From positions 1 to 64,000 of IMG/VR virus record IMGVR_UViG_3300020718_000278: 64,000 bases of DNA; one strand, given 5' to 3'. Both the position numbers and the translations under genes were made by a program. The notes beneath the pieces are model-generated. The model was not told where the DNA came from and made no database searches. It saw only the letters and a program-made list of their open reading frames with translations. The DNA comes from a virus (taxonomy: Duplodnaviria > Caudoviricetes). Each line of letters opens with the position of its first letter. Within the stretch, counting starts at the first letter, position 1. Shown piece by piece: positions 31,901-64,000 of the stretch.

Positions 31901-32352
31901 TAACAACAATTTATGCCGGATTACAAAACTATAAAATGATTAGTGATAATCTTATTCTTAATAGTGTAGAATTTCTTCCTTTATTTGGAAGCAAAGCTCC
32001 GGAAGCCCTTAGAGCAATTTTAAAAGTTATTCCGGCACCAAATACTAACGCTAGTAATAATCAGATACAAAATCTTGTATTAGCCACTATGAATTCTTAT
32101 TTTGATATTGCTAATTGGAATTTTGGAGATACTTTTTATTTTTCAGAGTTAGCATCATATATTCATTCCCAAATTGGAACTTATGTTGCTTCGGTAGTGT
32201 TAGTGCCACTCAATTCACAATTAAGTTTTGGCGCTTTGTATGAAATTCAATGTGCTCCAAATCAAATTTTTGTCAATGGTGCTGGTTTAAACGACATTGA
32301 AATTATTACAGCATTAACAAGTACTAATTTACAATCAGCCGGAGTATTTTAA
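28921..32352 (+). CDS. gp6: baseplate wedge protein, gp6/baseplate J-like
   Basis: DFETLRKSFIDYL...FNDYIESSEFIALLD...DTAERRDSVIKLA...RETIDQIKERAP...QNRMVNGEDY. Confidence 0.88.
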   Translation: MATTTRQTVLFGVEDWKRIYQTYSQGDFQSYDFETLRKSFIDYLRQYYPETFNDYIESSEFIALLDVMAFMGQALAFRSDLNTRENYIDTAERRDSVIKLANLISYAPQRNTEASGYIKVLSVSTTENVTDYNGANLANITVNWADPSNFDWQEQFIAIINASLVNTQSIGHPGNDQVILGVDTQEYTVNLVPGYLPVIPYTSLVNGISMPFEVVNATSAGETYIYEPPPLPNGNFNVLFRNDQLGYQSANTGFFFLFKQGVLQNQDFNLVEQVSNRTVNINIEGVNNEDVWLYQLDNVGAVQQIWKKVSSVYTAAVEQNSPTLQNAYSVTSRTNDQITLVFGDNVFATIPVGQFRTYVRASNGLQYIINPEEMQSVQIPISYVSRSGNIETITFTCGLTNPVTNATPRETIDQIKERAPARYYTQNRMVNGEDYTNFPFTTYNSILKSSAVNRSSIGTSRYLDLVDPTGKYSSTNIFGDDGALWYINTTPAFTFIWQTTNDINNVILNDITPILIQQTLRQFYYAYFPRPSLASLNYSWHESTTIVNETTGYFQNSLGTPVPIGQGYASNAAQYITEGSLVKFIPPSGYYFDSNNEIQPGLPVHDGDHLIIWASPTAVITDGTNGGAGNLPSGLGPVVLNTYVPTGAIAVEVIPLLVTSFSTEVKKTIYNQIYLKANFGLGYDSTGAITGTPYSWYVITATNLNVGASWSQQYAGNTSGSNLDASWLIQATFDGNQYTIVSRSLDYYYGSVLEVRFFFDTAQAIYDSRTGTVISDFVKVLKVNSQPNSNQPLLTNISLKIIGQPVLSDGLVDDYQVLVGYEDFNNDGIPDDPDFFVEITGISPSNTTFTSTTPWVFFQLTTDFDNLQRYLLQPAGLVVSIYPTLAAIEQVKEEYVTGQIFYAYQENTFYTLTLTLQGARALTLTSGWQAQVGRQSLYFQYRHNSALSNLIDPGSTNIIDLYLVTLEYYTAYVQWIRDTTNTISEPIPPTIDELTTIYAGLQNYKMISDNLILNSVEFLPLFGSKAPEALRAILKVIPAPNTNASNNQIQNLVLATMNSYFDIANWNFGDTFYFSELASYIHSQIGTYVASVVLVPLNSQLSFGALYEIQCAPNQIFVNGAGLNDIEIITALTSTNLQSAGVF

Positions 32353-44300: not shown

Positions 44301-47300
44301 AATGGGTCAGGAGAAGTTGTTGCTGTTACTGTTATTAATCCTGGAGCAGGATACAGTACAGATGCTACTATAACTATATCCGGTGGCGGTTTACCAGGAG
44401 TTTCTATTCCTTGGTCTGCTGGGTTAATGGTTAATTCTAATTCGTATATTATTACTAGAGCAAATGACATTTATAGAACTAATAATACTGGAGTATTGGG
44501 TAATGTTACTCCTATAGGTACTGGAACTGTGGTCAATGGTACTGTGGACTTAACATATGTTGGAACAAATGCCACTGCAGTTGCTTATATGGGTAATGGT
44601 TTGGTACGCTCAATTAAAACTACAATTAAGTATGACAGATATCAATATCAAACAGATATTATTGATTGGATGCCAACACAACTTATTATTATTCTTTTAG
44701 CAAATATAACAACATCTGGCGGTATTGCGACAGCAACGTTTGCTGCCGAACAAATGTCTGTACCGTTTCCCGATGAAAATATCATAACTGTAACAGGAGT
44801 ATCACTTACTGGATTTAATAATGAGTACACGGTAGTAACTTGTTCTACAACCAATTTAACTTTCCTTTCTAATTTTAATGGCGTAGGATATAATGGACAA
44901 ATAACTGGTACTGTATTAGTCACATATACAAATGGTACACAAGTACGTTATAGAAACCAAGTATGGCAAGCTAACGGAGTTTCTGGTTCGGTGACAAATT
45001 CTATATTTGATCCTGCCGAATGGGTGCTAGTTGACCCTGCTACATTAAGTGGTGTTGACCGTACTATGGGTTATTATGTTGCTACTCCTAATATTCCAGG
45101 TTTATCATTGCCATTATTGATTGACGGCATTGATTATCCAGGGGTTCAGGTCGCCGGTGTAACATTTAATCAAGATACCGGATACGACCGCGGCAATTAT
45201 GACATTAATACTTTTGATAATTATGGGTTAGATGCCAACGGGCAACCAACTTATGATTATGGAATTTTAAATACAATTTTTGAAAGCCAATATCTTGATC
45301 CTTATTTAGGTGTGCGCCCAACAGATATTAATATCAATGGCGGAGCTTATGTTGATACTTACGAAAGTCATGCCCCAGAAGAATTAGTACCGGGTATAGA
45401 ATTTGATACTTTAGATTTACGTGTTTATACAACACCAGGTGCTGACTGGTCTGGCGTAGGACACGGATTCCCACAACGCTTATTCCAAACAATATATAAT
45501 AGTTCTCAACCTATAACAAGTTTTGCCGGTCAAATGCCATATCCAATTACTATTGGCATTGTAAATGTTACACGTGGATATGATTTATTGGTAGGTATTG
45601 ATTATACCGTTAATTGGCCCAATCAAACTTTTACAATTTTAAATTCTTCGGCATTGGTGGTTAATGGAGATCAAATAGCCATTTATGTTTATGAGCTCGG
45701 TGGTGGGAATCAATTATACAAAAACACATATAACGGTGGTAGTGTTGGTAATACTATCACGGTGCCCGTTGAATACGATCAAATTCAAGAATTTGTAATT
45801 TTTATTAATGGTGCCTATTTAAATAATAGTAATTACAATTTTGTTGTAGGTACAGCATACGGAACAACGGTTCTTACATTTGACACTACTTATACATCCT
45901 CAGATTTTATAAGTTTAGTGGTAATTGCCCCAACAACAATCAATAATATTACAACAAACTATTCTTGGAGTGTTCCAGTAGTTCAAAATATTGTGGGAGT
46001 TACAGGCGTTTTAACATATAATTTAGATAATAGTTTACTTTATACAAATTCAGTTAATCCTATTGTAACAGTACAAGGAATTCGTGCTAGAACAGCGGCG
46101 GGAATAGATTTTGTAGCAAGCGGATCACAATACAACTTCCCTCTTCCTGGAAGATTAGGAATACCATTAAGTTCAGTAACAAATACGGATGTACAAGTTT
46201 ATATAAATGATGAATTACAAAATCCATCAACATGGTATTTAGATCTTGGTGTGTACACTGAAGGATATGCTGCTACATTATTTGATGTTGGTCTGACTAC
46301 CAATCATCCAGGATCTTATGATTATTCAACTTTGGTTGATGCACTACAAGTTGTATTTTATGTGGCTCCGACCGAAGGCAAAAGAATCTATATTGCCGTT
46401 ACCGCCGGCACACAAGCTACAATTGATCCTATAGCCAGGACATTGACTTTTAATCCATCTGGTGGGCTAGTTCCAATTACAGGAGAAACAATTTCAGTAA
46501 CTACATTTAATGATACTAGAGAACAAAGATTACTTACACAAGTTTTTGTTGGTCCAGTTTTGGTAGGTGTTGAAATAAATGATTTGGATTTAACAAGATT
46601 CACTACCAATATTGACAGATTAAAAGTATTTTTAAATGGGAAACAGTTAACTCCTTATATTGGATTTACAGTAGAAGGTACACAGCTTATTTTAGGTTCT
46701 GGCACACTACAACCTACAGATGTTGTTATGGTAACACAAGTTACAAATTCTGTAGTTCCGGAAGCTATGGCATTTAGAATATTCCAAGACATGCGCGGAA
46801 TACAAGCAACATATAGAATTACTGCTAATTCAACTACTGTTTTAATACAAGCAGTAGAAATTACCGATGATATAATCTATGTTGATAATGCCAGTGCGTT
46901 AAGTGAACCTGATTTTGCAGCTAACATATGGGGAGTTATAACTATTAATGGTGAACGCATAATGTATCGTGATAGAGATATAATTAACAACACAGTTAGT
47001 AGTTTGTTACGTGGAACGGCGGGCACAGGAGCTGCTACTCATGAAGTTGGAGCTAGCGTCTATGACATGGGTCGAGGTAATTTATTATCAACTCAATTCC
47101 AGGATTATATTGTGTCGAATACAATTTTAGCCGACGGGGCAACAACAATTTTTACTGCAGATAATATTTCATTGGTATTTGATAATGCTGTAATTTGGAA
47201 TTATGCCGACACATACAATCAAGGGACGGTAGTAGTTAATTCTAATTTTTATTATAGAGCAATACGTACGATACCATCAAATATTGCTATTACGGATACT

Positions 47301-51461: not shown

Positions 51462-51489
51462 AAAGGGGCTTCTTGCCCCTTTACTTTTT
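51462..51489 (+). terminator. intrinsic terminator ending the structural operon
   Basis: AAAGGGGC-TTCTT-GCCCCTTT followed by ACTTTTT. Confidence 0.85.
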
Positions 51490-51508
51490 CCCTCAGATGT
51501 AGTATAAT
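51480..51508 (+). promoter_or_regulatory. sigma70 promoter TTTACT-17-TATAAT for the modification cluster
   Basis: -35 at 51480-85, -10 at 51503-08; ATG at 51515. Confidence 0.7.
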
Positions 51509-51514
51509 AATGGT

Positions 51515-51829
51515 ATGGATACTGACAAATTAATTGCCCATAGTCGCAGTCGTTTTGACCATGCGGCAGCCAAGCGCACACTTAAAGAAAAATATCAAGG
51601 TAAATTGGTATTTGCTCACAACGGCGGAATGTTTAAAGCAGAGCCTAATCTTATTGTATTTTTAGAATCTTGTTGGGGACAAGGACAGATAGACCCAGTA
51701 ATAATTGACTTGTACGGGAATCCAGTAAAAGTTCATAGCACTAATTTATTAAACGAGGCTAGGAAAATTTATAAAGAACAAACAACTGCTTGGTTGAAAG
51801 AATACGAAGACCTTAACAAAAACAGATGA
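51515..51829 (+). CDS. hypothetical protein, 104 aa
   Basis: First ORF after the promoter; ATGA overlap with the next gene. Confidence 0.7.
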   Translation: MDTDKLIAHSRSRFDHAAAKRTLKEKYQGKLVFAHNGGMFKAEPNLIVFLESCWGQGQIDPVIIDLYGNPVKVHSTNLLNEARKIYKEQTTAWLKEYEDLNKNR

Positions 51830-52626
51830 CAGCCGGTGTACTAATCTTTGCTTTTAATAATGAACATATAGATTATCTAGCCATGGCTAATTGGTCAGCA
51901 AAAAATATTCGCAGACATTTAAATTTGCCAGTAGCTGTAGTCACTAATACTACCATTCCTTCTAATTACTTTTTTGAACAATCTATTATTGCTGAGCCCG
52001 AGGGCGAATATTTTAGAAAATTTGCTGACCAAGAAGAAAATGTAACATGGTATAATGGTAATCGTGTTGACGCATACAATTTATCCCCGTGGGCGCACAC
52101 ATTGTTATTAGACGCAGATTATGTGGTAGCTAGTAGTGAATTAAAAAAAATATTAGATATTAGAAAAAATTTTGTAGCACATAAAACAGCTTATGATATA
52201 GTCGACCAAGATAACTTTGACGAGCTTAATAATTTTGGAAGTTTTAATATGCCAATGTGGTGGGCAACTGTAATAATGTTTAGGCGTTCAACCGAAGCAC
52301 AAATGATTTTTGAATCAATGGCAATGATAAAAAATCATTGGAAACATTATAGGAATTTATATAAAATTTTAAACTCAACTTATCGTAATGATTTTGCGCT
52401 AAGTATAGCATTAGGTATTGTTAATGGGCATACACTTGATTATACAGAAATTCCATGGTCCTTGGCTTCATTGACTCCAGCGCATAAATTAACGCAAATA
52501 GCAGAAGACCAATATCGTATAGATTTTTTAACACAGGATAATAAACCTCGATACATTACTATTAATCAAGATTTTCATGCTATGGGTAAAAAACATTTGG
52601 GAGATATCATTGCCAAATCAAGCTGA
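51826..52626 (+). CDS. GT-A fold glycosyltransferase-like protein
   Basis: LLLDADY (DxD), YRNDFALSIAL, C-terminal HAMGK. Confidence 0.6.
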   Translation: MTAGVLIFAFNNEHIDYLAMANWSAKNIRRHLNLPVAVVTNTTIPSNYFFEQSIIAEPEGEYFRKFADQEENVTWYNGNRVDAYNLSPWAHTLLLDADYVVASSELKKILDIRKNFVAHKTAYDIVDQDNFDELNNFGSFNMPMWWATVIMFRRSTEAQMIFESMAMIKNHWKHYRNLYKILNSTYRNDFALSIALGIVNGHTLDYTEIPWSLASLTPAHKLTQIAEDQYRIDFLTQDNKPRYITINQDFHAMGKKHLGDIIAKSS

Positions 52627-53341
52627 AAAAGGATATTTAATACCGGCGATAGGAGAGGTTTACGTTAAGTGCGCTAAACAATTAGCTAATAGCATATTAC
52701 AATGGCATCCAAATGCTGATATAACTATTTTAACAGAAGACATGTTACCCTATGGAAAATTTACTGGATTTGCTAATGACTGGCAATGCTATGAAGCAAG
52801 TCCGTATGAAAAAACTATAAAATTAGAAGCAGATATGTGGTGCGCCAGCCCAGTTGATCATTGGTGGGACTTGTTTTCTAATCGTGATGTGGTTATTAGC
52901 CAAGGATGTAGAAATTTTTATAATGAACCTGGTAAATCAAGAATATATCGTAAAATATTTGATAACAATAATTTACCAGATGTTTATAATGGCATCACCT
53001 ATTGGCAGGTAAGTAATACAGCCGAAGAATTTTTTAAATTAGTTCGTGATATTTTTGAAAATTGGGAAAAATATAAAACTTTGTTAAAATTTCCCGATGA
53101 AATACCTACAACTGATGTTGTATATGGAGTGGCAGCAGTTATTATGGAAGTTGAAAACGTGACTCTACCCGCGGGTATGGGACCAACTATGGTACATATG
53201 AAGAAAAATATGATACCTATTACAACAGAAAAATGGACCAATGAGTTGATATTTGAACAGACAAATCCTGGTGTTAGAATTAACACAGTAGCACAATGGG
53301 GATTAGTGCATTATCATGTGAAGGAAATAGAGAATGAGTAA
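52610..53341 (+). CDS. GT-A fold glycosyltransferase-like protein, paralog of the previous gene
   Basis: TIKLEADM, LPDVYNGITY, TTDVVYG, MVHMK; probable TTG start at 52610 with GGAGA SD. Confidence 0.55.
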   Translation: MPNQAEKGYLIPAIGEVYVKCAKQLANSILQWHPNADITILTEDMLPYGKFTGFANDWQCYEASPYEKTIKLEADMWCASPVDHWWDLFSNRDVVISQGCRNFYNEPGKSRIYRKIFDNNNLPDVYNGITYWQVSNTAEEFFKLVRDIFENWEKYKTLLKFPDEIPTTDVVYGVAAVIMEVENVTLPAGMGPTMVHMKKNMIPITTEKWTNELIFEQTNPGVRINTVAQWGLVHYHVKEIENE

Positions 53342-53579
53342 AGACATAGATAAAATTAAACATAGCAAACGTTTGCATCATGATAATACGGCTATTGCCA
53401 AACAAAAAGCTATAGCAAAAACTCATAATATTCCAACAGGGCCCGAGCATCGCCTAGCAAAAGTTCATGCTACTACCTGTGGTGACTCTAATTGTGTTAT
53501 GTGCGGAAATCCACGTAAATTTTTTAAAGAAAAAACAATACAAGAAAAACGAGCCGAGCAAAGAGCAAAAGATGAATGA
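53334..53579 (+). CDS. small basic Cys/His protein, 81 aa
   Basis: HATTCGDSNCVMCGNPRK; AAGGA SD; overlaps both neighbours. Confidence 0.7.
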   Translation: MSKDIDKIKHSKRLHHDNTAIAKQKAIAKTHNIPTGPEHRLAKVHATTCGDSNCVMCGNPRKFFKEKTIQEKRAEQRAKDE

Positions 53580-53889
53580 AAAAGAATTTTGGGCGGCATT
53601 AAAACCCGTAGAATCTAAACCATTATTATATAGGTTGTATTACAATGACGCCGGTAACCCATTATATTTTAGCCAAGAAGATTTACCAGGTAATTATATA
53701 GATGTTGATTATAAAACATACATCAACCCACCAAAGTATATACGTGTGGTGGATAAAAAATTAGTAATACTTGAGGATACCGCAGTAACAAAATTATATC
53801 CAGGAAAATCTGGAACTTGTTGCCATCCGCAAGATATCACTATAATAGTTGATGAGTCAACTCAACATATCAAATGGAGTTTAAAATGA
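53572..53889 (+). CDS. hypothetical protein
   Basis: Likely start 53572 (MNEKEFW...LYRLYYNDAG...); coupled overlaps. Confidence 0.6.
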   Translation: MNEKEFWAALKPVESKPLLYRLYYNDAGNPLYFSQEDLPGNYIDVDYKTYINPPKYIRVVDKKLVILEDTAVTKLYPGKSGTCCHPQDITIIVDESTQHIKWSLK

Positions 53890-54815
53890 AAAGTATTGAT
53901 GTAGCAGATTTAGATTGTATCTATTTATCATATGACGAACCACAAAAAGAAGAATTTTGGGTCAAAATTAAAAATATGGTACCTTGGGCCAAACGAGTTG
54001 ATGGAGTAAAAGGTTCAGATGCCGCACATAAAGCTGCTGCCGCGGCCAGCGAAACAGAAAGATTTATTTTAATTGATGGTGATAATTTACCTAACGATGA
54101 GTTTTTTGATTTAATAATTGAATTTCCCGACGACACTTATGAGCAAGCAGTTTATCGCTGGAGAGCTCGTAATCATATTAATGGATTATTGTACGGTAAC
54201 GGCGGCATAAGTTCTTGGACTAGGACATTTGTTAATAACATGAAAACTCATGAAAATACCGATGGACGAGCGGAAACTGAAGTAGAATTTTGTTTTGATC
54301 CACTATACTGGGCCATGAATGATTGTTATAGTGTAACCTACCCTAACGCATCTCCATTTCAAGCATGGCGAGCAGGATTTAGAGAAGGTGTGAAAATGTG
54401 TTTAGACCGCGGAATAAAACCAAACATAACGGAATTTAAAAATAAAGTACATCATCGCAATCTAGATAATTTAACCGTATGGCATAATATAGGAAGAGAT
54501 GTTGAAAATGGTATATGGGCAATATTGGGCGCTCGTATGGGTACTTATATGCTCATGATTACACCTTCGTGGGATTATCGAGAGGTACAAAATTTTGATT
54601 CGCTTAAAAGCATTTACAGTACAATAGATGGACATAATCCAGAAATTATTTCTGCTAAAATATCTGGAGAATTATCCAAACAATTAGATTTACCAATGGC
54701 TATGCTTGACGAAACTGCCAGCAAATTTTTTAAACATCACTATCGAAGCGAACAACGTAATAAAGGAATTATGATTCGTGAAATTGATGTCATTAGACAA
54801 CAAGAGGGCTGGTAA
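53886..54815 (+). CDS. glycosyltransferase-like protein (GT-A, family 2-like)
   Basis: IYLSYDEP...RVDGVKGSDAAHKAAA...FILIDGDN; AWRAGFREGVK. Confidence 0.6.
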   Translation: MKSIDVADLDCIYLSYDEPQKEEFWVKIKNMVPWAKRVDGVKGSDAAHKAAAAASETERFILIDGDNLPNDEFFDLIIEFPDDTYEQAVYRWRARNHINGLLYGNGGISSWTRTFVNNMKTHENTDGRAETEVEFCFDPLYWAMNDCYSVTYPNASPFQAWRAGFREGVKMCLDRGIKPNITEFKNKVHHRNLDNLTVWHNIGRDVENGIWAILGARMGTYMLMITPSWDYREVQNFDSLKSIYSTIDGHNPEIISAKISGELSKQLDLPMAMLDETASKFFKHHYRSEQRNKGIMIREIDVIRQQEGW

Positions 54816-55357
54816 TGTTTGATAAAGATTCATTTTCAAATGGACAAATTGACAGCAAACTATGGTTATGTCGCGAGTTAGAAGCACTTAACTGGTCTAG
54901 CGACTATACCCATATATACGGCGGCTGGTATGGAATACTTGCTTTTTTATTGCTTAGTCGTGAGAAGTTTAAAGTAGGACGTATTGAAAGTTTTGATATA
55001 GATCCTCACTGTGAATCTATTGCGGACATGATTAATGAAAATTGGGTTATCAAAGAATGGAAATTTAAAGCCTTTACATTGGATTGTAATCAAAGCATAC
55101 GGGGTAATCCTGACTTAATTATTAATACAAGCAGCGAACATTTTGAAAATATGGAATGGTTTAACAACATTAAATCAGGAACTCGTGTTATTATACAAGG
55201 TAATAATATGCCACACGATGATCATTATGTACATTCTTCTACTCTAAAGGATTTTATAACACATTATCCGTTAACTAATATTGTTTATCAAGGAGAATTA
55301 AAGTTTGTCTATCCAGAATGGAAATTTACTAGGTACATGATAATTGGAATCAAATAA
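54815..55357 (+). CDS. class I SAM-dependent methyltransferase
   Basis: Motif I variant IYGGWYG, acidic SFDID, LIINTSSEH. Confidence 0.7.
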   Translation: MFDKDSFSNGQIDSKLWLCRELEALNWSSDYTHIYGGWYGILAFLLLSREKFKVGRIESFDIDPHCESIADMINENWVIKEWKFKAFTLDCNQSIRGNPDLIINTSSEHFENMEWFNNIKSGTRVIIQGNNMPHDDHYVHSSTLKDFITHYPLTNIVYQGELKFVYPEWKFTRYMIIGIK

Positions 55358-55997
55358 AATACGCGGGTCTAATTCAACCCACGGTCAAGATCTTTGGGTT
55401 TTAGCTACTACTAATTTTCGAAAGAATGGGTACTATGTTGAAATGGGTGCTATAGACGGAGTTTTTCAAAGTAATACTTACATACTTGAAAAAGACTACG
55501 GGTGGCAAGGCATATTAGTTGAGCCTGACAAACGTTTTTCTTCTGTACTAGAGAAAAATAGACCAAATAGTAAAATTGATTATAGTTGTGTTTGGTCAAC
55601 TACTGGAAAAATTAAAACTTTTTATCAGTCAAATACAATGATTGACGCCAGAAGCACAATTGAAGAATTTGCTGAAGTAGGATCTGCTAATCGAACAAAT
55701 TGGAATAAATATACAGTTAACACTATTAGTTTAATAGATTTGTTACATCGATATAATGCGCCAAATTATATCGATTATCTTAGTTTAGATGTTGAAGGTA
55801 GCGAATTAACAATACTTAAAGGATTTGATTTTAATCAATACGAATTTGGTTGTATCACTATTGAGCACAATCGTCGATCTGATTATCGCGACGAAATTAA
55901 ATTATTTTTGAATTCAAAAAATTATTATACACCGGCAAATTGTGAAAATTTGTTTTTGTGGGATGATTGTTATGTGTTAAATAAAGGATCCGTATGA
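55344..55997 (+). CDS. FkbM-family methyltransferase
   Basis: YYVEMGAIDG...SNT...GILVEP...IDYLSLDVEGSEL...ITIEHN. Confidence 0.88.
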   Translation: MESNKIRGSNSTHGQDLWVLATTNFRKNGYYVEMGAIDGVFQSNTYILEKDYGWQGILVEPDKRFSSVLEKNRPNSKIDYSCVWSTTGKIKTFYQSNTMIDARSTIEEFAEVGSANRTNWNKYTVNTISLIDLLHRYNAPNYIDYLSLDVEGSELTILKGFDFNQYEFGCITIEHNRRSDYRDEIKLFLNSKNYYTPANCENLFLWDDCYVLNKGSV

Positions 55998-56953
55998 AGA
56001 AAAAATATTATAAATTAGTTCACGCTAAAGAAACAAACACTGATTGGTTTGTAGTTAATTGGTGTCTGGGTAATACTTGTAATTTTAGTTGCAGTTATTG
56101 TCCAGACAATCTGCACAACGGAACCAATCCTTGGCCAACCCCGGACACTATTAAAAATTTTATAAACAAAGTTAAAGAGACACACCCCGACAAAAAATTA
56201 TATTTTGAATTCACTGGCGGCGAAGTTACATTGTATAAACATTTCATTGAAATTTGTCAATATTGTACAGAACAAGGTGTTAAAGTAGGTTTAATTTCTA
56301 ATGGATCTAGAACATTGCGTTATTGGAAAGAAAATAAACAATATTTTGACCATGTATGTTTAAGTTTTCATCCAGAGTTTGGCGATGCTGACCACTTTAT
56401 CGAAGTTGTTAAGGAATTAAACAACGATGTAAGAACTCATGTTAATATTATGATGAGTCCTGAAAAATTTGATTATTGTTTTGATATAGCTAATAAAGTA
56501 AAAGACCTTGGTAATATATCAATGGCTTTGCAACCTTTAATACACGACTTTGGCGAAGTATTATACGATTATACACCTGAACAAAAACAAATTATCGATA
56601 ATCAACACGAATTAATTAGTAAACATATAAAATTTACTAAAACATTTGAATATTATAGAGGTGCTATGAAAATGCTATATCCTAACGGTCAATCGTTAGT
56701 GGTAAGTGCGCATCGTTTTATAAATGAAAAAGCAAATGACTGGTCAGGTTGGGATTGTTATGCTGGTGTCGAACAACTAATTGTAGATCAGCGCGGAATG
56801 ATTTCTCGAGGATGGTGTTTAGAAGGCGGTATTATTGGCAGTATATTTGATGAAAATTTAAATTTGCCCGTTGATCCAATACGTTGTACAAAAACAATGT
56901 GTCATTGTAATTTTGACATTATGAGTACTAAGGAATATCCCAATAATGGATGA
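55994..56953 (+). CDS. radical SAM enzyme with C-terminal twitch/SPASM-like domain
   Basis: CNFSCSYC, FTGGEV, SNG; C-terminal WDCYAG...GWC...CTKTMCHC. Confidence 0.92.
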   Translation: MKKKYYKLVHAKETNTDWFVVNWCLGNTCNFSCSYCPDNLHNGTNPWPTPDTIKNFINKVKETHPDKKLYFEFTGGEVTLYKHFIEICQYCTEQGVKVGLISNGSRTLRYWKENKQYFDHVCLSFHPEFGDADHFIEVVKELNNDVRTHVNIMMSPEKFDYCFDIANKVKDLGNISMALQPLIHDFGEVLYDYTPEQKQIIDNQHELISKHIKFTKTFEYYRGAMKMLYPNGQSLVVSAHRFINEKANDWSGWDCYAGVEQLIVDQRGMISRGWCLEGGIIGSIFDENLNLPVDPIRCTKTMCHCNFDIMSTKEYPNNG

Positions 56954-58187
56954 TGTAAACACTAATAAACAATTTAGAGTTTATGATACCACTAAAAAAT
57001 ATATTAGAATATCAGTAGATGAAGCGATAGCTCGCGGGTTAAACAAATGGCAAAATTGGCAATGTAGTGCTGGCGTACGAGGATTATATATTGATTTTGA
57101 TGGCAATGTATGGGTTTGTAATACTGCTAGTTCAAAAGTTAATAAATTTAATGACGACGCTTGGAAAAAAACATTTTGGCCTATCATAGAACCATTTAAT
57201 GGAAATGTTCCAGATGAGTGGTCAAGTACTGGATTGAAATGGCAGGAATTAAAAAAAGAATTTAATAAATCATCTATAGCATTTGAAAAAATTATACCCC
57301 AGGATTCAACTGAACATCCTGGATTTATTGGTAATATATATGATGGATTTACTATTTCTAATGAATGGTTTGTTTGTCCTTGGAGTAGTTGTGGGTGTGG
57401 AGCAGATGTTATATTATCTAAAGCCAAAGAATATAATGACAAATCTTTGTTAGCAGTGACAAACAACGGCGTACTTGGTAGAATGAATACTATTGACAAT
57501 CAAGTAGAATTAATCAATAATCCTGTGGCAGTAGAAATGAACTTTCCGATAGAATATCAAATTTTATGGGATTTAGGTCGCAAATGCAACTATGATTGTT
57601 CTTATTGTTGGCCAGCAGTGCATAATCGAACTTCGGAACATAAAGATTATGATTTATTAATTAAAACAACTGATAAATTAATTAACGAATGGGCTCAAGG
57701 CAATACAATAAGATGGAATTTTGGCGGAGGCGAACCTACATTACATCCAAAATTTTTAGACTGGTTAAAATATTTAAAAAGTAAAAATCAATGGACTATG
57801 GTAACCAGTAACGGTACACGTGATCATAAATACTGGGCAGAAGTTGTACAATATACAAATAGTATTAATCTTAGTGCGCACTTTGATGGATTAAAAGATG
57901 AGCAAGATGAAGATAGATTTGTTAAAAATGTCGAAGTTATTTGTAAACACTTTGACGAACACAACGATGATCATTGGTTAGAAGTTAAATTAATGGCCCC
58001 ACCACAATATTTGGATCGCGCATTAAAATTAAAAGAAAAAATTATGAAATTAGGTACATTAGATCAACTGGGAGCAAATAATAGAATTAAAGGAGTGCTA
58101 AGTTTAGTTCCAATACGCAGTATAGGGGATAGTGGAACTCTTGTGGAATATACTGCTAAACAATTAGAAAAATTCCAATATCAGTAA
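56946..58187 (+). CDS. radical SAM enzyme with N-terminal twitch/SPASM-like domain
   Basis: N-terminal WQCSAG...VWVC...CPWSSCGC; then CNYDCSYC, GGGEPT, TSNG. Confidence 0.9.
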   Translation: MDDVNTNKQFRVYDTTKKYIRISVDEAIARGLNKWQNWQCSAGVRGLYIDFDGNVWVCNTASSKVNKFNDDAWKKTFWPIIEPFNGNVPDEWSSTGLKWQELKKEFNKSSIAFEKIIPQDSTEHPGFIGNIYDGFTISNEWFVCPWSSCGCGADVILSKAKEYNDKSLLAVTNNGVLGRMNTIDNQVELINNPVAVEMNFPIEYQILWDLGRKCNYDCSYCWPAVHNRTSEHKDYDLLIKTTDKLINEWAQGNTIRWNFGGGEPTLHPKFLDWLKYLKSKNQWTMVTSNGTRDHKYWAEVVQYTNSINLSAHFDGLKDEQDEDRFVKNVEVICKHFDEHNDDHWLEVKLMAPPQYLDRALKLKEKIMKLGTLDQLGANNRIKGVLSLVPIRSIGDSGTLVEYTAKQLEKFQYQ

Positions 58188-58188
58188 C

Positions 58189-59493
58189 ATGAATAAATCA
58201 AACACACTTTGTCCTATCCCGTGGACACACTTATCAATACAACAAAACGGAGACTTACGGGCTTGCTGCCAATGTATCTATGCTCCTTATGGACAACTAT
58301 CAGATGAAACTGGAACACTTAACATAAAAGACGCTGATTTAGACATAGCAAGGAATCATTCTGTATTAAAAGATTTACGAAAAAGTATGATTAACGGAGA
58401 GAAACATCCGTTGTGTAATCTTTGTTGGAAAGAAGAAGAACACGGCTTGTTTAGTAAACGAAGTAATATGGTAAGAAGGTATGACACAAGCGAGTACGAA
58501 ACTTTAACTTCGCCCGACGGAACAATTGACACTAATCAATTCCCTTTACGTTACATTGATATACGATTTGGTAACTTATGTAATTTAAAATGTAGATATT
58601 GCGGCCCGGCTGATAGCTCTTTATGGGCCGAAGATTATGCTATGATGGCTGATAGTGACGAGCCACGATTACCTTTTTATAAATCTAAAGAATATAAAAT
58701 TAAACAAATTAATAATGTATGGAAAATTGATTCTACAGATTTCGAATGGTATGAAAATGAAAATTTTTGGAAACAGATTGACAAATTAATTCCTTATATT
58801 GATAGATATTATTTTACTGGCGGTGAGCCAACGGTTAATAAAGCGCATTTTAAATTACTTGAGCATATAATTATGTCTGGTCATTCTCCTTATGTAACAC
58901 TAGAATATAATTCTAACATAGTAGCTATTCCAAATAAATTATTTAATATGTGGGAAGCGTTTAAATCTGTAGAAATAGGTTGTAGTTTAGATGCTACTGG
59001 AGATTTAGCAAATTATTTACGTTATCCTAGCGAGTGGGATGTCTTGAAAGAAAATTTAATAAAAATTGATCAAGCAAAAGCTGATATTGTTGCGGCAGTA
59101 GCAACTACTATCAGTGTTTATAATATTAGAAACTTTTTAGAACTTACAGAATGGTTAATAACACAACCATTCAATAAAGTTAAAATCATCCCATCTTACC
59201 ATGTATTAGAAGGTCCAGCACACATGAGTGTTCAAGTATTGCCTTTAGAAGTTAAAAATCAAATAGTCCAAGAATATGAAGATTTTTACAAAAAAATAGC
59301 CAAAATAGACAAGTCTACAGCAATAATTCTGCGTAAAGTTTTTTCAGGGATAATTAACTATATGCTAGCAGAAGACAAATCACATTTATTAACAAATCTT
59401 ATGTATGCTACTGAAAAATTAGATAAAGTACGTAATCAAGATATAAAAAATTACCTACCTTGGCTTGCAGAAATAATAAATCAAAGGAAATAA
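58189..59493 (+). CDS. radical SAM enzyme with N-terminal twitch/SPASM-like domain
   Basis: CPIPWTHL...RACC...CNLCW; CNLKCRYC; FTGGEP; YNSN. Confidence 0.92.
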   Translation: MNKSNTLCPIPWTHLSIQQNGDLRACCQCIYAPYGQLSDETGTLNIKDADLDIARNHSVLKDLRKSMINGEKHPLCNLCWKEEEHGLFSKRSNMVRRYDTSEYETLTSPDGTIDTNQFPLRYIDIRFGNLCNLKCRYCGPADSSLWAEDYAMMADSDEPRLPFYKSKEYKIKQINNVWKIDSTDFEWYENENFWKQIDKLIPYIDRYYFTGGEPTVNKAHFKLLEHIIMSGHSPYVTLEYNSNIVAIPNKLFNMWEAFKSVEIGCSLDATGDLANYLRYPSEWDVLKENLIKIDQAKADIVAAVATTISVYNIRNFLELTEWLITQPFNKVKIIPSYHVLEGPAHMSVQVLPLEVKNQIVQEYEDFYKKIAKIDKSTAIILRKVFSGIINYMLAEDKSHLLTNLMYATEKLDKVRNQDIKNYLPWLAEIINQRK

Positions 59494-59494
59494 A

Positions 59495-60256
59495 ATGTCA
59501 ATCATTGGATTAGATGCCAATCATGCTCCATTTAAATATTTGGACGAATATGTAGAAACACCAAATTGGGAACAGTTGCATAATGAAGTATGTTTAGGAA
59601 TTGCTAAAGCTGAATGGAATAAAAAATTTGTGTCTAGCGGAGTACACAAAGATTGGGCTGATGATGAAATTACAACAACTTTTCTTAAACTACAAGAAAG
59701 ATTAACTCCAGATCAATTACGCATTTTTGTATCATTGGCATCTGTGGATGAAAAAATAAAATTTCTTAACGCACTAACATATACACCGCACCCGTTCTGG
59801 GTTATTTTCTTAAGATGGAACAGACGTGTTGAAAAAACTGGTGTGTACAATAAAGCTGTGCCTGAAGATTGTTTTTGGACTGAAAATGCTAAACAATTTC
59901 CGTCTTTAGTAAAGTTCATTGAATCTATGCCTTTTGAAGGCATCGGGCGTGTGATATTGTTTATGACTGAAGCAAATAATAAAACAGTTCCGCATTATGA
60001 TGTAGCTAATGATGCGCAAAGAGCTGAAAAACCAAATGATGACTTTATATGGTTTACTACAAAGCCAAAATCTAAAGGTGTATATGTAATGGATGGCGAA
60101 ACATTAGATAAAGTTTACCCAGATCCAGATAAACGATTTGTATGGTTTAATGAAATGGATTATCACGGTACTGATCCAGTCAATCATTTTAGTTTTTCAA
60201 TTAGAATAGATGGCAAATTTAAACCAGGAGTACGCGAAGCACTTACAAAGGGTTAA
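59495..60256 (+). CDS. putative 2OG-Fe(II)/cupin-type oxygenase
   Basis: HYD...YHG spacing, RVILF, SIRIDG; resembles Asp/Asn beta-hydroxylase-like proteins. Confidence 0.55.
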   Translation: MSIIGLDANHAPFKYLDEYVETPNWEQLHNEVCLGIAKAEWNKKFVSSGVHKDWADDEITTTFLKLQERLTPDQLRIFVSLASVDEKIKFLNALTYTPHPFWVIFLRWNRRVEKTGVYNKAVPEDCFWTENAKQFPSLVKFIESMPFEGIGRVILFMTEANNKTVPHYDVANDAQRAEKPNDDFIWFTTKPKSKGVYVMDGETLDKVYPDPDKRFVWFNEMDYHGTDPVNHFSFSIRIDGKFKPGVREALTKG

Positions 60257-60827
60257 GTTCTTTATTCCACGGGGTGTTGATAATGCATCTATCTTTATTA
60301 CGCCACTGATTTACAAATCCTTGGTAATACATTAGTGCTTTTTCTTTAGAAATACTTTGATATGGTAACCAAGCTCGTATATCAAATCCAGCATCAAATA
60401 ATTCTTTGTTAAAATTTTTCCTATCTTGTTGTAGCCATTCAATATTTTCGCTAATCTGTGTAGTAGGTTGAGGAGAAAAAAATTGTTTAATAATATCAGC
60501 ACTACGCCATACCTCAACATAATCAATGCTTTTGCTGACAGGGTTACCGACTTTGACTCGCCAAACTAAATTGCCATTTGCAGCAGAATCGTAAAAAATT
60601 TGATTATGAGCATTCCAATCTTGTTTTAAATTTGCTGTTTGTTTACGCACATTCATACCTGTTTGTGCTAACGCAGGGTCAAAATAATTATTGTAAAATT
60701 TTTCGTTATTTTGAGTATGCTGTATCCAAAGATATCTAATGGCCCACGGCCCTTCATCACTTTCTATTAAAGTATTCATTTCAAGAAGATCCTGATCACC
60801 GTAGTTACGTCTTGGAATCACTAGCAT
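60243..60827 (-). CDS. hypothetical protein, 194 aa
   Basis: Last ORF of the minus-strand operon; no family recognised. Confidence 0.65.
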   Translation of the reverse strand: MLVIPRRNYGDQDLLEMNTLIESDEGPWAIRYLWIQHTQNNEKFYNNYFDPALAQTGMNVRKQTANLKQDWNAHNQIFYDSAANGNLVWRVKVGNPVSKSIDYVEVWRSADIIKQFFSPQPTTQISENIEWLQQDRKNFNKELFDAGFDIRAWLPYQSISKEKALMYYQGFVNQWRNKDRCIINTPWNKELNPL

Positions 60828-60828
60828 A

Positions 60829-61707
60829 TTAAAAATATTTCTTTTTATGTTCGTCCCACTCTTGTTCGTCTAAATGATTAATATTAATTCTAAAAAAGTG
60901 TCGAGTAGCAGCTTTTGGGTCAAACGTTAATGCTGTTCTTGAATGTATAAATGAATGATTATCGTAAATAGCAATATCGTTGGTGTCCCACTGGTGTTGA
61001 TATAATAACTCAGGAACTTTTTCTAAGTGATTAGTCCATTGGCGTATTAAAAAACAATGCCCTTGAGATACTCCATCAATTTTAACATCAGTAATCCAAG
61101 CACCCTTTTTTTGACCCCAATTATAATGATTTAATCTCAAAGATTTTGCCCCGGTAATAGGATGTATTTTAAGTAGTGGAAATTCTTTAATGTCTGAGCC
61201 TGGCTCGTACCAACTTTGCTGACATACTGTTACACGAGGTATTAGTTCTATCATTTCTGGAGTAAGATATTGAAAACTTTCTTCAAGATTCATCCAACTA
61301 GTTTTTCCCGAACGTCCTGGGGTAGGATTTTCTGTAATCCACAAACTTCTAAAAGGATAGGGTTTGTAATCTCTATTTGGAATATCTGAATGCCAATTCA
61401 TATAAGCATTTGATACCATTTTGGTATTGGCATTGTTAAATGGACTTATAATTTGTACACCGTTTTTAGTCTCTACCTCTTCAGTTACTTCATGCGAATA
61501 TCTGTAGTCGTCGGTAGTCCATGGTTTTCCAAAATAAAAACTAAATTCTGAATATTGTGCTTTTGTAAAATCAACTTTTTTAAAGAAAATTAATTTTCTT
61601 TCGTACGACAATTTGCGCCAGTAATCAGGGCTGTAATTAAAAAATTCTTCCGGGGTATCTAAGTTAATTATTGATCCCCAACTATCTTTTATGTTTGTAA
61701 TGTTCAT
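60829..61707 (-). CDS. TauD/TfdA-family 2OG-Fe(II) dioxygenase
   Basis: WHSD, HPITG, HQW...DIAIYDN...HSR, RHFFR. Confidence 0.85.
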   Translation of the reverse strand: MNITNIKDSWGSIINLDTPEEFFNYSPDYWRKLSYERKLIFFKKVDFTKAQYSEFSFYFGKPWTTDDYRYSHEVTEEVETKNGVQIISPFNNANTKMVSNAYMNWHSDIPNRDYKPYPFRSLWITENPTPGRSGKTSWMNLEESFQYLTPEMIELIPRVTVCQQSWYEPGSDIKEFPLLKIHPITGAKSLRLNHYNWGQKKGAWITDVKIDGVSQGHCFLIRQWTNHLEKVPELLYQHQWDTNDIAIYDNHSFIHSRTALTFDPKAATRHFFRININHLDEQEWDEHKKKYF

Positions 61708-62312
61708 GATAACCTTGCGTCTATAATAAAGTTAATTCTGTCTTGGCCACTATGATTTTCCAACCAATGTGGAACATGATTATTAACCCAGTACAATGAA
61801 TCGACATCAAGGACACAATCTTCATTTCTGATAGCAAAAATGTTATCTTCTGCGGCTGTTACTGTAAAATGAAATCGATCATAGTAACTAAAATATCTAC
61901 CTTCATCTGTGTGTAAATCTACAGTTGAATGAGCAGCCAATTTACTTACAAAAATCCTGCCAAACTCTACTTGTTTAGCTCCTGTTTTTAGCAAGGTCTC
62001 TTCAAACCATTCTATTGATTTTTTAAAAATAGGTAAATCGGCGGTCACAGATTGAGTAACCATCATGTGCTGATTTGTTTGTAAAGTGTTTAGCCCTGGC
62101 GGCAAATCTTTTAAATATCTTAAGTGAATTGTTTCTGTGTAGCGCAATGCGTGGGTTACTGTTTGTCTATGCGTACTAAGTTTCCACAAAAATGCGGTAC
62201 TCGCATCATTGAAATAATTTCTTAATTCGTTGCCTAGCTCTGCATTAGTGTCTAGTTTAAAACTATTCAAATCTTCTTCAAAAAATTTATAAGGACTTAC
62301 TAAACAATTCAT
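61704..62312 (-). CDS. aspartyl/asparaginyl beta-hydroxylase-like 2OG-Fe(II) oxygenase
   Basis: GRIFVSKL...LHTD...RFH...WVNNHVPHWLEN...DRINFIID. Confidence 0.8.
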   Translation of the reverse strand: MNCLVSPYKFFEEDLNSFKLDTNAELGNELRNYFNDASTAFLWKLSTHRQTVTHALRYTETIHLRYLKDLPPGLNTLQTNQHMMVTQSVTADLPIFKKSIEWFEETLLKTGAKQVEFGRIFVSKLAAHSTVDLHTDEGRYFSYYDRFHFTVTAAEDNIFAIRNEDCVLDVDSLYWVNNHVPHWLENHSGQDRINFIIDARLS

Positions 62313-62908
62313 AGATAACCTCCAACTGGGGTATCTTTACGATATTCTCTTTTTAAGTATGTACAACGAATAACAGTATCGGTTGGTAACAAAATACGAC
62401 TGAATAAAATAGTCCAGAAATTTTGATGTATACATTTAGTTTTTGCTGGTACTATGCATTCATCGAAATAATCATATCTTTCTCTAGCTTCTTTACTAAA
62501 GGCAAATCGTCTTAACAATTTGCCGTGTTTTTCTGACCACAAGGTATAAAATCTATATCTACCTTGTTTTTCATTATATTCCATGGCAGCATCTAACAAT
62601 TTGCGTACATAACTTCTATTGTTTGTAGAACGAATCATAGTACCATACCATACTGGTTCGTTAGGACTAAGATAAAAAGATATTAATGCTATAATTTTAC
62701 CATCATCATCTTGTAATCCTAATGCTTTATATCGAACAAGCCCTGACAAATATGTTTCCACAAATGAACTGTGATATATTTTCTCAATAGGATTTTTTTC
62801 TGTTGGCACAAAATAACTAGCGTGTAAGTCTGTGCCCATAAAATTTTTAGTATAGAACAAATGCACAACCGCATCGATATGAGTATGGTCTAATTCTATA
62901 ATTTTCAT
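62309..62908 (-). CDS. GNAT-like fold protein (putative acyltransferase)
   Basis: ALGLQDDDGKIIALISF...WYG...LLDAAMEY...FYT pattern. Confidence 0.4.
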   Translation of the reverse strand: MKIIELDHTHIDAVVHLFYTKNFMGTDLHASYFVPTEKNPIEKIYHSSFVETYLSGLVRYKALGLQDDDGKIIALISFYLSPNEPVWYGTMIRSTNNRSYVRKLLDAAMEYNEKQGRYRFYTLWSEKHGKLLRRFAFSKEARERYDYFDECIVPAKTKCIHQNFWTILFSRILLPTDTVIRCTYLKREYRKDTPVGGYL

Positions 62909-63822
62909 ATTTCGCCTCTTAATTGTTTTAATGCTAAGTCGTATGGAACTCCATCCAAACTAAACTCTAATCTTTTAACTTGGTCAAACCCAATGTCTTC
63001 GTATGCTTGGCCATTGAATGCTAACAAACTTTCAAAACCATGTTTCTTTTCTTTTTTTCTAAATTGTGAATACATTTTTTCTAGTATAGCATTTTTACTT
63101 GATGCTGCTGTTAGTTTATAGTTATATTTGTCTGTTACTAATTTTTTAATACCGTCTGATTCTAAGTAATATAATAGTAATTCGGGGGTATAGCTATACC
63201 ATTCGTTAACTAATGGAAGATTATACTTTAAACTAAATCGCATAGCACTAGCATCTTCATTTTCTCGAAACGCATAATACCAATAACTACCTGCGGGTTC
63301 AACTTGTCTTGTCACTCCAGCTTCGCCGCCCATGACAGCTGGCTGTCCTAACTTTAATATATTTTTGTAAACCATAATATAGGTTAGCTGAGTACTTTGA
63401 ATTTGCTCGCCAAACTCAGTAGCTTCGCCTGAAAAGAAAAAATCGTGTACATTAAAATCTATAATTTGAAGTTTAACTCCTAGTTCAGCAGCAATAGCTT
63501 CGGCCTCGGCGACTTCACTGGCATTATAGTTATTTTCAAATCTAATTACCGCACATTGCGGCTTGAACCCGTTATGTATGAAATTACGCAATACAATTTC
63601 ACTGTCAGTACCACCTGATAAAAATAGTATAAGATCCTTACCAAAGTCTTCGCGAACTAACTGTGCTGTTCTGTGTAGTTCTTCTTCGAAAGAGCTTGTA
63701 CGATATTGATCTGGGTCAACAGCTCCTAACGAAACAACAAATTTCTCAACAGGTGTTTCCCGGTAGCCGTATTCTCTGCCACCAATTGTATATTTTAAAT
63801 GATTCTGATATGTAAAATACAT
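62905..63822 (-). CDS. PP-loop adenine nucleotide alpha-hydrolase (asparagine synthase/ExsB-like)
   Basis: LFLSGGTDSE PP-loop; AEAIAAELGV; VMGGE. Confidence 0.7.
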   Translation of the reverse strand: MYFTYQNHLKYTIGGREYGYRETPVEKFVVSLGAVDPDQYRTSSFEEELHRTAQLVREDFGKDLILFLSGGTDSEIVLRNFIHNGFKPQCAVIRFENNYNASEVAEAEAIAAELGVKLQIIDFNVHDFFFSGEATEFGEQIQSTQLTYIMVYKNILKLGQPAVMGGEAGVTRQVEPAGSYWYYAFRENEDASAMRFSLKYNLPLVNEWYSYTPELLLYYLESDGIKKLVTDKYNYKLTAASSKNAILEKMYSQFRKKEKKHGFESLLAFNGQAYEDIGFDQVKRLEFSLDGVPYDLALKQLRGEI

Positions 63823-63998
63823 TAGCCCTTGCGATCAGCAAATATTTTTTGTCTACTTTCCTTAGTAGCAATCAATGGTACAAAGAATAAACTTGAATCC
63901 CATTCAGACTTCTTACCACTTACTGTAGTGCCGAAGTCATAGGCGCTTGCCTTTTCGTGATGATTATTATGCCAACCTTGACCCCAAGTAATCCACGC
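63822..63998 (-). CDS. membrane fatty acid (acyl-CoA delta-9-type) desaturase, C-terminal fragment
   Basis: Manual translation AWITWGQGWHNNHHEKASAYDFG...; third His box matches the canonical GEGWHNNHH. 5' part lies outside the window. Confidence 0.75.
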   Translation of the reverse strand, partial: AWITWGQGWHNNHHEKASAYDFGTTVSGKKSEWDSSLFFVPLIATKESRQKIFADRKG

Positions 63999-64000
63999 AA

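Follow-up and report, generated by a model that had tools for sequence, protein, structure and literature searches.

Does a 12.5-kb run of biosynthetic-type genes in a phage encode one pathway or two, and what could its enzymes make? The question is raised by the last part of a 64-kb stretch of viral DNA (positions 1 to 64,000 of the IMG/VR record IMGVR_UViG_3300020718_000278; hereafter the window), where a plus-strand and a minus-strand arm of enzyme genes follow the fibre-like genes of a tailed phage and meet head-on. An initial annotation, made from the sequence of the window, had read the two arms as one cluster for an unusual modified glycan, lipid or acyl group. We found that the region is indeed filled with biosynthetic or tailoring enzymes, but a single 12.5-kb pathway was not borne out. 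In our view the chances are about even that two independent modules abut here, one for virion glycosylation (Module 1, plus-strand genes at 51515-59493) and the other an acyl-tailoring cassette (Module 2, from 59495 to 64640 and beyond). The novelty lies mainly in Module 2, in which genes for a PP-loop ATPase, GNAT-fold proteins and a desaturase would form a cassette for acyl tailoring on a carrier protein.

The PP-loop, GNAT and desaturase cassette

The core of Module 2 consists of the PP-loop ATPase, the GNAT-fold protein p199, a Δ9-type membrane fatty-acid desaturase and a second GNAT-like protein, p193. Relatives were collected as 75 IMG/VR loci and several metagenome loci with 10-kb flanks, in which open reading frames (ORFs) were called and clustered; the neighbour counts refer to the 65 PP-loop loci whose flanks extend for 3 kb or more on both sides. 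It is clear that the core is kept together, as p199 adjoins the PP-loop gene in 64 of these loci, the desaturase lies within three genes of it in 63 (in two or more copies in 13), and a GNAT-like protein of the f3/p193 type lies within four genes in 60. The p193 and f3 proteins are homologous to each other (hhalign, 87%; such comparisons of families were run on selected pairs) and weakly GNAT-like. In addition, a 74-amino-acid protein is encoded within two genes of the PP-loop gene in 24 of the 65 loci, directly upstream of it in relatives. This protein is an acyl carrier protein (ACP), with an invariant DSL site and a profile that matches 118 solved ACP chains (best E 6.4e-13). The f3 protein is fused to the ACP in one locus, and several PP-loop relatives carry a Pfam GNAT domain joined to their N- or C-terminal end; both kinds of fusion suggest that the core proteins work as one unit. 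Around the core, relatives have between one and four desaturase genes in tandem and many genes for AspH-like cupins.

The PP-loop ATPase is a protein of 305 amino acids with the motif SGGTDSE at residues 69-75, in which S69, G70, G71 and S74 are invariant. It has 753 close homologues, all of them metagenomic, and a profile search extended the family to 3619 cluster representatives. Scanning 185,579 prokaryote species genomes by pattern turned up no close relatives, and tblastn against cultured phages with the PP-loop gene, p199 and a PP-loop paralogue of about 400 amino acids as queries gave no match. Against the PDB, the family profile gave generic NAD-synthetase and QueC matches at E>0.01 only. 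The SGGxDS motif is common to the C-terminal domain of asparagine synthetase B, QueC and NAD synthetase, and neighbours in the Atlas carry the automatic name 'asparagine synthase domain'; the present family differs from these enzymes in being phage-specific, in having seven paralogues on one contig and in scoring below their cut-offs. Glutamine-dependent asparagine synthetase was rejected as an identity, as there is no glutaminase domain, the PP-loop lies at residue 69 and asn_synth_AEB matched at only 16 bits (E 0.0046), where the cut-off is 267. QueC was rejected as well, with 21.3 against a cut-off of 22 for PF06508, 21.4 against 150.3 for TIGR00364, and no QueD, QueE or FolE nearby.

The AlphaFold2 model of p199 (predicted local distance difference test score, pLDDT, 83.8) has a GNAT fold. 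VIA gave a Z score of 14.7 with a root-mean-square deviation (rmsd) of 2.6 over 148 aligned residues, and all 381 Foldseek matches at E≤1e-3 were acetyltransferases; a search of p199 against PDB sequence profiles found nothing significant. The desaturase carries the His boxes HRYVSH, HRGSHH and HNNHH and matches the structure of the acyl-CoA Δ9 desaturase SCD1 (4ymk) with E 4.5e-13. Among genuine cultured phages, tblastn found a weak homologue of it only in Pelagibacter phage Mosig. A further match, in 'Acinetobacter phage MD-2021a' (CAKLQH020000002.1; our locus L086), lies in a bacterial context (trpB, btuB, baeSR) and was discarded as probably not phage DNA.

We think that Module 2 probably makes a modified fatty-acyl amide, because its core combines a carrier protein (in many relatives), a Δ9-type desaturase, two GNAT folds and a PP-loop enzyme that lacks a glutaminase. 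Members of the PP-loop class, such as asparagine synthetase, NAD synthetase and QueC, adenylate carboxylates and turn them into amides. From this set of enzymes we infer the substrates, the order of the steps, the product and its destination. An acyl chain would be carried on an ACP, which relatives encode themselves and which here would be supplied by the host or by the unsequenced rest of the genome. The chain would be desaturated by the membrane desaturase and optionally hydroxylated by AspH-like and TauD oxygenases; the two GNAT-fold proteins would then move the acyl group to an amine, and the PP-loop enzyme would adenylate a carboxylate and close a second amide bond. In the end, an aminolipid-like N-acyl amide that is unsaturated, hydroxylated or both would be formed.

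The oxygenases in this scheme belong to a variable set of accessory genes. In the 65 PP-loop loci we counted AspH-like genes in 32, TauD in 27, twitch-type radical S-adenosylmethionine (SAM) genes in 19, p253 in 18 and p194 in 13; many AspH-like cupins or B12-type radical SAM enzymes are further neighbours. Although it is encoded on the plus strand, p253 belongs by co-occurrence with the accessories of the minus arm. Its family aligns with the AspH-like family (hhalign 89%, E 2.2e-6), and a search against PDB sequence profiles found nothing significant. The orphan p194 occurs mostly beside TauD and/or p253, and the convergent p194/p253 pair is conserved. In another clade of loci (L008:4905-8889 and similar), genes for SAM synthetase, DUF2452, NifU-like, AhpC and CMD-family proteins precede the cassette. 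These genes could supply radical SAM and di-iron enzymes with cofactors and support them in redox terms.

To our knowledge, lipid auxiliary genes of phages are known only as single desaturases, and full-text literature searches found no published description of a PP-loop/GNAT/desaturase/ACP cassette. Like the terminal-alkyne system JamA/JamB/JamC and the polyyne clusters cay and pgn, Module 2 has a dedicated ACP (in relatives) beside one to four membrane desaturases and an ATP-using activating enzyme. The comparison is one of enzyme types; the activating enzyme of those systems is an ANL-family acyl-ACP ligase, whereas here it would be the PP-loop ATPase, and no AMP-binding (ANL) domain was found in the scanned genes of the window, the contig and the representative neighbour families. 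The present system also differs in its two obligatory GNAT-fold proteins, in that no thioesterase was seen and in that the contig itself carries no ACP. The ornithine-lipid pathway (OlsB, OlsC/LpxO) is alike in its acyl-ACP-type donor, its N-acyltransferase, its AspH/LpxO-family hydroxylase and the amide-linked lipid that would be expected, whereas the Ols pathway lacks equivalents of the PP-loop enzyme and desaturase, and no O-acyltransferase is present here. Membership in the OlsB family was tried and rejected, as p199 and p193 matched no Pfam family at E≤0.01 and f3 was likewise without an OlsB-type or other Pfam match. Cyanophages also encode membrane fatty-acid desaturases, as stand-alone lipid genes (PMC5776448); here the desaturase is instead coupled to PP-loop and GNAT genes, often in several copies and, in relatives, with an ACP. 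We are dealing with a multi-enzyme acyl-tailoring cassette that is fixed across many uncultured giant phages, and no precedent is known to us for its combination of a PP-loop adenylating enzyme with GNAT domains and, in many relatives, an ACP. Should the cassette yield a novel amide lipid, or a lipid that marks the virion or the host envelope, a new class of metabolite made by phages would be added, and a protein family of thousands of members would be assigned a function.

The glycosyltransferase block and its phage

Both gene sets are carried by an uncultured T4-like jumbo myovirus. PHROG matches to a major head protein, a portal, a gp46/47-type nuclease, a late sigma factor and a baseplate wedge identified a T4-like myovirus, and its major capsid protein shares about 65% identity with capsids of jumbo phages, for example Vibrio phage 2.275.O and PA5oct. 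The record from which the window comes is a single contig of 82.6 kb, with the window as its first 64 kb; because relatives lie on contigs of 190-380 kb, we take the record to be a piece of a larger, jumbo phage genome. When the region was searched against cultured phages by Megablast, no match was obtained.

The enzyme region is preceded by an ORF of 5,067 amino acids (32352-47555; 17.8% Ser+Thr) and then by three fibre-like genes, and in relatives the glycosyltransferase block likewise comes after homologous giant ORFs (4,400-5,100 amino acids). Behind the giant protein, genes for p230, a fibre, the Ser/Thr-rich p317, p104, p266, p254, p81, p106, p313 and radical SAM enzyme(s) follow one another in this order in the loci L004, L011, L012 and L015, and also in L084 and L085, which are more distant phages from metagenomes. 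Ralstonia phage RsoM2USA shares the enzyme part of the order, again after its giant protein. Just upstream of the RsoM2USA block, ORF356, ORF359 and the giant ORF361 encode virion proteins, as was established by mass spectrometry (PMC8504454). In the present phage the protein encoded immediately upstream of the block is p317, with 31.9% Ser+Thr compared with a median of 11.3%, and it is the obvious candidate acceptor. Since the GT8-like genes directly follow a Ser/Thr-rich fibre-like protein and virion proteins, virion glycosylation with methyl and radical-SAM tailoring is suggested; judging by gene position and fold, Module 1 most likely builds and decorates a glycan on virion fibre proteins. 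The GT8-like pair, the GT2-like candidate, the methyltransferase(s) and the radical SAM/twitch enzymes would together assemble and decorate this glycan.

The best-supported enzyme by fold is p266, whose AlphaFold2 model had a pLDDT of 90.3 and a predicted template modelling score of 0.89. Foldseek returned 287 PDB matches at E≤1e-3, with UGGT, glycogenin, LgtC and GlyE at the top. In VIA, glycogenin-1 scored highest among the structures compared (Z 15.5, rmsd 3.6, 200 residues aligned), with Z scores of 14.5 for Skp1 galactosyltransferase, 14.4 for UGGT and 14.0 each for GlyE and LgtC. These nearest folds are GT8-type enzymes, several of which glycosylate proteins (glycogenin, Skp1 galactosyltransferase, UGGT, GlyE), and the neighbours of p266 in BFVD are named as glycosyltransferases. 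The DxD motif is D96-A97-D98, with A97 and D98 invariant in 29 sequences that include the p254 paralogues. By sequence, neither p266 nor p254 matched Glyco_transf_8 or any other Pfam family at E≤0.01, and the p266 profile found nothing significant in the PDB. The start of p254 is probably the TTG at 52610 and not the ATG at 52577, since orthologues have stops in the first 11 codons of the longer ORF.

Orthologues of p104, which always stands before the GT8-like pair, occur in the six loci named above with 50-61% identity, and the first gene of the RsoM2USA block belongs to the same local family. The p81 gene, masked by the longer ORF 53467-53889 and overlooked in the initial annotation, has 24-25 orthologues in two contexts, amid glycosyltransferase genes or beside a NifU-like gene. 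The ORF that masks it probably starts internally, as p106 at 53569, because its homologues align from residue 31-41 onward. Searches of p313 against Pfam and PDB sequence profiles gave no match. RsoM2USA has two p313 copies that flank a twitch radical SAM gene, and p180 co-occurs with p313 in 15-18 loci and in RsoM2USA. The FkbM-family gene was found in none of 81 related loci and is private to the present phage. Radical SAM enzymes 1 and 2 are paralogues. Radical SAM enzyme 3 scored 358 bits against the NF033640 cut-off of 170, with a SPASM Pfam match at residues 8-80 and a CNLKCRYC motif; relatives carry one to five tandem copies of such a twitch gene, and a scan of viral contigs with a single twitch radical SAM protein as query gave no match. 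Five tandem paralogues of the twitch type follow the p313 gene on the 364-kb contig of L085 (L085:13600-20000).

All ORFs of the initial annotation were found in place, and the coupling that it had described is tight: neighbouring genes overlap by up to 16 nt on the plus strand and by up to 4 nt on the minus strand, and gaps on either strand do not exceed 1 nt. The arms meet in a tail-to-tail overlap at 60243-60256, and no terminator was found at this junction. Pfam bore out the three radical SAM enzymes (the third also by NF033640), the desaturase, the TauD-like protein and the Asp/Asn hydroxylase-like protein; the PP-loop ATPase was recognized by its motif and weak QueC/NAD-synthase matches, the GNAT-like 199-amino-acid protein by its modelled fold, and the 253-amino-acid oxygenase by its invariant residues and its relation to the AspH-like family. 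The 194-amino-acid protein is an orphan as before. Where three glycosyltransferase-like genes had been named, p266 and p254 stood as GT8-like GT-A enzymes and p313 became a candidate, on account of an invariant D-G-D and the automatic name of a sister cluster. Similarly, one of the two methyltransferases was upheld as an FkbM-family enzyme, and p180 had no Pfam or PDB sequence match. As had been reported, no nucleotide-metabolism genes occur on the contig, and no precursor peptide is obvious in the region, where no search dedicated to precursors was run.

Table 1. Features of the enzyme region; positions are those of the window, with the desaturase gene extending beyond it on the contig.
Feature	Position	Strand	Basis or remark
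Terminator-like hairpin	51462..51482	+	Between fibre-like gene (end 51431) and enzyme block; 8-bp stem, 5 GC pairs, then T-run; consensus match only
p104, small conserved protein	51515..51829	+	Always before the GT8-like pair; no family match
p266, GT8-like retaining GT-A glycosyltransferase	51826..52626	+	Fold and DAD motif
p254, p266 paralogue, GT8-like	52610..53341	+	hhalign to p266 family 96.6%, E 5.7e-10; phrog_1903
p81, conserved small basic protein	53334..53579	+	H..HH..CG..C..C motif, zinc-ribbon-like
p106	53569..53889	+	Listed as ORF 53467-53889; conserved from internal Met
p313, candidate GT-A (GT2-like) glycosyltransferase	53874..54815	+	Invariant D68-G69-D70; Atlas sister cluster automatically named GT2-like
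p180, possible small class-I methyltransferase	54815..55357	+	No Pfam or PDB sequence match
FkbM-family methyltransferase	55344..55997	+	PF05050 E 3.8e-15; TIGR01444
Radical SAM enzyme 1	55994..56953	+	PF04055 E 3.5e-12; CxxxCxxC at 29-36, Cys-rich C-terminus
Radical SAM enzyme 2	56946..58187	+	PF04055 and Fer4_12 at residues 211-311; Cys-rich N-terminal extension
Radical SAM enzyme 3, N-terminal twitch-domain family	58189..59493	+	NF033640 E 6e-107
p253, AspH-like cupin / 2-oxoglutarate (2OG)-Fe(II)-type oxygenase	59495..60256	+	Invariant H167, D169, H224, R237
p194, orphan accessory	60243..60827	-	No family or profile match
TauD/TfdA-family 2OG dioxygenase	60829..61707	-	PF02668 E 8.4e-20
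AspH/LpxO-family-like hydroxylase	61704..62312	-	PF05118 24.4 bits, cut-off 22.6
p199, GNAT-fold acyltransferase-like, core	62309..62908	-	AlphaFold2 fold
PP-loop ATPase, asparagine-synthetase/QueC-like phage-specific family, core	62905..63822	-	SGGTDSE motif
Δ9-type membrane fatty-acid desaturase, core	63822..64640	-	Window holds 3' end 63822..64000; PF00487 E 7.5e-16

Virion glycosylation by phages is known mainly from actinobacteriophages, and among T4-like jumbo phages a glycosylation block linked to fibre genes is a novelty. According to Freeman et al. (2023), as cited in PMC12619734, mycobacteriophages that glycosylate their virions have glycosyltransferase genes beside structural genes. 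The arrangement is alike here, with glycosyltransferase genes directly downstream of virion genes and a Ser/Thr-rich candidate acceptor; it differs in that the carrier is a T4-like jumbo myovirus and in that GT8-like enzymes are combined with radical SAM/twitch enzymes and methyltransferases. The 'moraphage' of the same paper (PMC12619734) was rejected as a match, being of a different lineage with Bacteroidota hosts. The families of the GT8-like/twitch-radical-SAM block have thousands of metagenomic homologues, and RsoM2USA is its cultured carrier.

One pathway or two

Inheritance of the whole 12.5 kb as one unit was not borne out. The p313 gene occurs in 7 and the p266 gene (with p254) in 4 of the 65 PP-loop loci. 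No PP-loop cassette was found within about 10 kb after the block in L084 and L085, nor within about 15 kb of the block in RsoM2USA, whose sole distant PP-loop homologue is encoded some 180 kb away and has no GNAT, desaturase or ACP gene next to it. Moreover, the p313 family (at least 8000 homologues) and the p266 family (2737) are both larger than the close PP-loop family. Because the block is found without the cassette, because p313 and p266 are rare in PP-loop loci and because the family sizes differ, we take the arms to be separate modules. Independent shuffling of the genes, which the initial annotation had named as evidence against its cluster, was thus seen between the two arms but not within the PP-loop/GNAT/desaturase core. 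The extent of 12.5 kb did not hold either, since the desaturase gene and related genes behind it continue past the end of the window.

Several observations weigh against parts of this reading. An NDP-sugar (nucleoside diphosphate sugar) epimerase and a protein with a p313-like domain often adjoin the PP-loop cassette (15 of 65 loci), so the modules could still feed one acylated-glycan product. GT8-like enzymes also build lipopolysaccharide, and LgtC, with its Z score of 14.0, is tied within 1 Z unit. The argument for virion glycosylation consists of gene position and predicted fold. As for Module 2, p199 has no obvious acyl-CoA pyrophosphate-binding motif (Q/R-x-x-G-x-G/A, strand 4/helix 3) as judged by eye, and we know of no precedent for a PP-loop ATPase linked with an ACP. 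Furthermore, a hidden Markov model search over the six frames of the present contig found no ACP (best E 0.38), and the ACP profile found none on the IMG/VR records of the four closest relatives, which are 17-39% complete. The contig being a fragment, an ACP may lie elsewhere in the genome.

A single pathway, in which both arms together with the epimerase, the glycosyltransferase-domain protein and the PP-loop paralogues of the island would make a single glycan or glycolipid, acylated and methylated, that is placed on the virion or at the surface of the host, is in our opinion on the unlikely side, as is the Nod-factor-like or N-acyl-amino-sugar structure that its product would resemble. The genes are contiguous and tightly coupled, an NDP-sugar epimerase/dehydratase and a 606-amino-acid protein with the p313-like domain are encoded in the same island, the epimerase stands directly beside the cassette in L007, L019, L021, L022 and L038, and 19 of the 65 PP-loop loci have twitch radical SAM genes. 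The rarity of p266, p254 and p313 in those loci, the size of the p313 family relative to the PP-loop family and the blocks without a cassette in RsoM2USA, L084 and L085 all speak for separate modules instead, and no sugar aminotransferase was seen. A more limited link, in which the acyl amide of Module 2 would be put on the fibre glycan of Module 1, so that a virion appendage would bear both sugar and lipid or a lipoglycan would change the host envelope, seems quite unlikely. We also find it improbable that a peptide, or the giant or fibre proteins, are modified in the manner of ribosomally synthesized and post-translationally modified peptides (RiPPs), with the SPASM/twitch radical SAM enzymes and the AspH-like and TauD hydroxylases working on a protein substrate, the PP-loop enzyme acting like a lasso cyclase and the GNATs acylating lysines as do HlyC-type acyltransferases, which depend on acyl-ACP. 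Tandem SPASM/twitch radical SAM paralogues (up to five) adjoin giant virion proteins, AspH enzymes classically act on Asp/Asn residues of proteins, and the acylation of RTX toxins follows the same logic of an ACP with a GNAT-like acyltransferase. NCBIfam gave weak matches to peptide maturases, but all of them were far under the cut-offs; no precursor-like small ORF with a variable core was found, no search dedicated to precursors having been run, p104, p81 and p106 are conserved along their whole length, and multi-copy membrane desaturases indicate an acyl chain and not a peptide. For the PP-loop module, the ACP beside its gene in relatives favours an acyl- or lipid-type product, and the RiPP-like alternative offered in the initial annotation has lost ground accordingly.

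The genes might also have no common product and form a mosaic of stand-alone auxiliary metabolic genes that act on host molecules, with the desaturase tuning membrane fluidity as in cyanophages, the LpxO-like enzyme hydroxylating lipid A and TauD scavenging sulfur, and we give this little credence. It would agree with the documented stand-alone desaturases of phages (PMC5776448), with the shuffling of accessory genes between loci, and with the TctC and DctP binding proteins, transporter and amidohydrolase of the same island. It does not explain a PP-loop/GNAT/desaturase/GNAT core that is near-invariant in content and order, whose genes overlap translationally, which recruits a dedicated ACP and in which PP-loop-GNAT and GNAT-ACP fusions occur. 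Hypermodification of DNA by the glycosyltransferases, radical SAM enzymes and QueC-like PP-loop enzymes is highly improbable. Phage glycosyltransferases do often glycosylate DNA, weak QueC-like matches were found in Pfam and PHROG, and RsoM2USA has, besides its normal thymidylate synthase, a second, divergent gene of this family (MG752970.1, 7739-8398; 85 bits), whose product could be a pyrimidine hydroxymethylase. Nevertheless, the QueC scores are under the cut-off, no FolE, QueD, QueE, DpdA, base hydroxymethylase or nucleotide kinase is encoded in or close to the region, virion genes surround the block, and a membrane desaturase and an ACP would make no sense in DNA chemistry.

The larger island beyond the window

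Both modules sit in an accessory island at about 51.5-82 kb of the contig, in which Module 2 continues to about 67.9 kb. The T4 late-promoter consensus TATAAATA was not enriched in the window, with 4 matches compared with 11 expected. A divergent gap of 26 nt (64641-64666) between the desaturase operon and the p193 operon contains a near-palindrome with back-to-back TAAATA-like cores, and it is a candidate bidirectional late promoter. Past this gap the contig encodes the GNAT-like protein of 193 amino acids, two PP-loop paralogues of about 300 amino acids, a Rieske protein, a DUF2061 protein and four PP-loop paralogues of about 400 amino acids, and the island also holds the NDP-sugar epimerase/dehydratase mentioned above. 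In all, the PP-loop family has seven paralogues on the contig between 62905 and 77905 (three of about 300 and four of about 400 amino acids), all with SGGxDS. A search of the PP-loop paralogues and island proteins against NCBIfam was uninformative.

One of the longer PP-loop paralogues (contig 68374-69528, minus strand) has its first ATG downstream of the sequence for its N-terminus and YSGGSDS loop. From there back to the stop codon that ends the paralogue before it, the frame is open and contains no ATG, GTG or TTG, so a non-canonical start or read-through from the upstream gene must be used. Between 70731 and 75536 the contig encodes a membrane protein like sodium/solute symporters, an Amidohydro_2 enzyme and the solute-binding proteins TctC and DctP; TctC adjoins PP-loop paralogues of about 400 amino acids in 13 of the 65 loci. 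The protein of 606 amino acids (contig 77912-79732, minus strand) has several internal repeats of about 50 residues, of the type VWYLD..KF...DKVW...DMGY..P, followed by the C-terminal p313-like DGD domain, and its homologues adjoin the PP-loop cassette in other phages.

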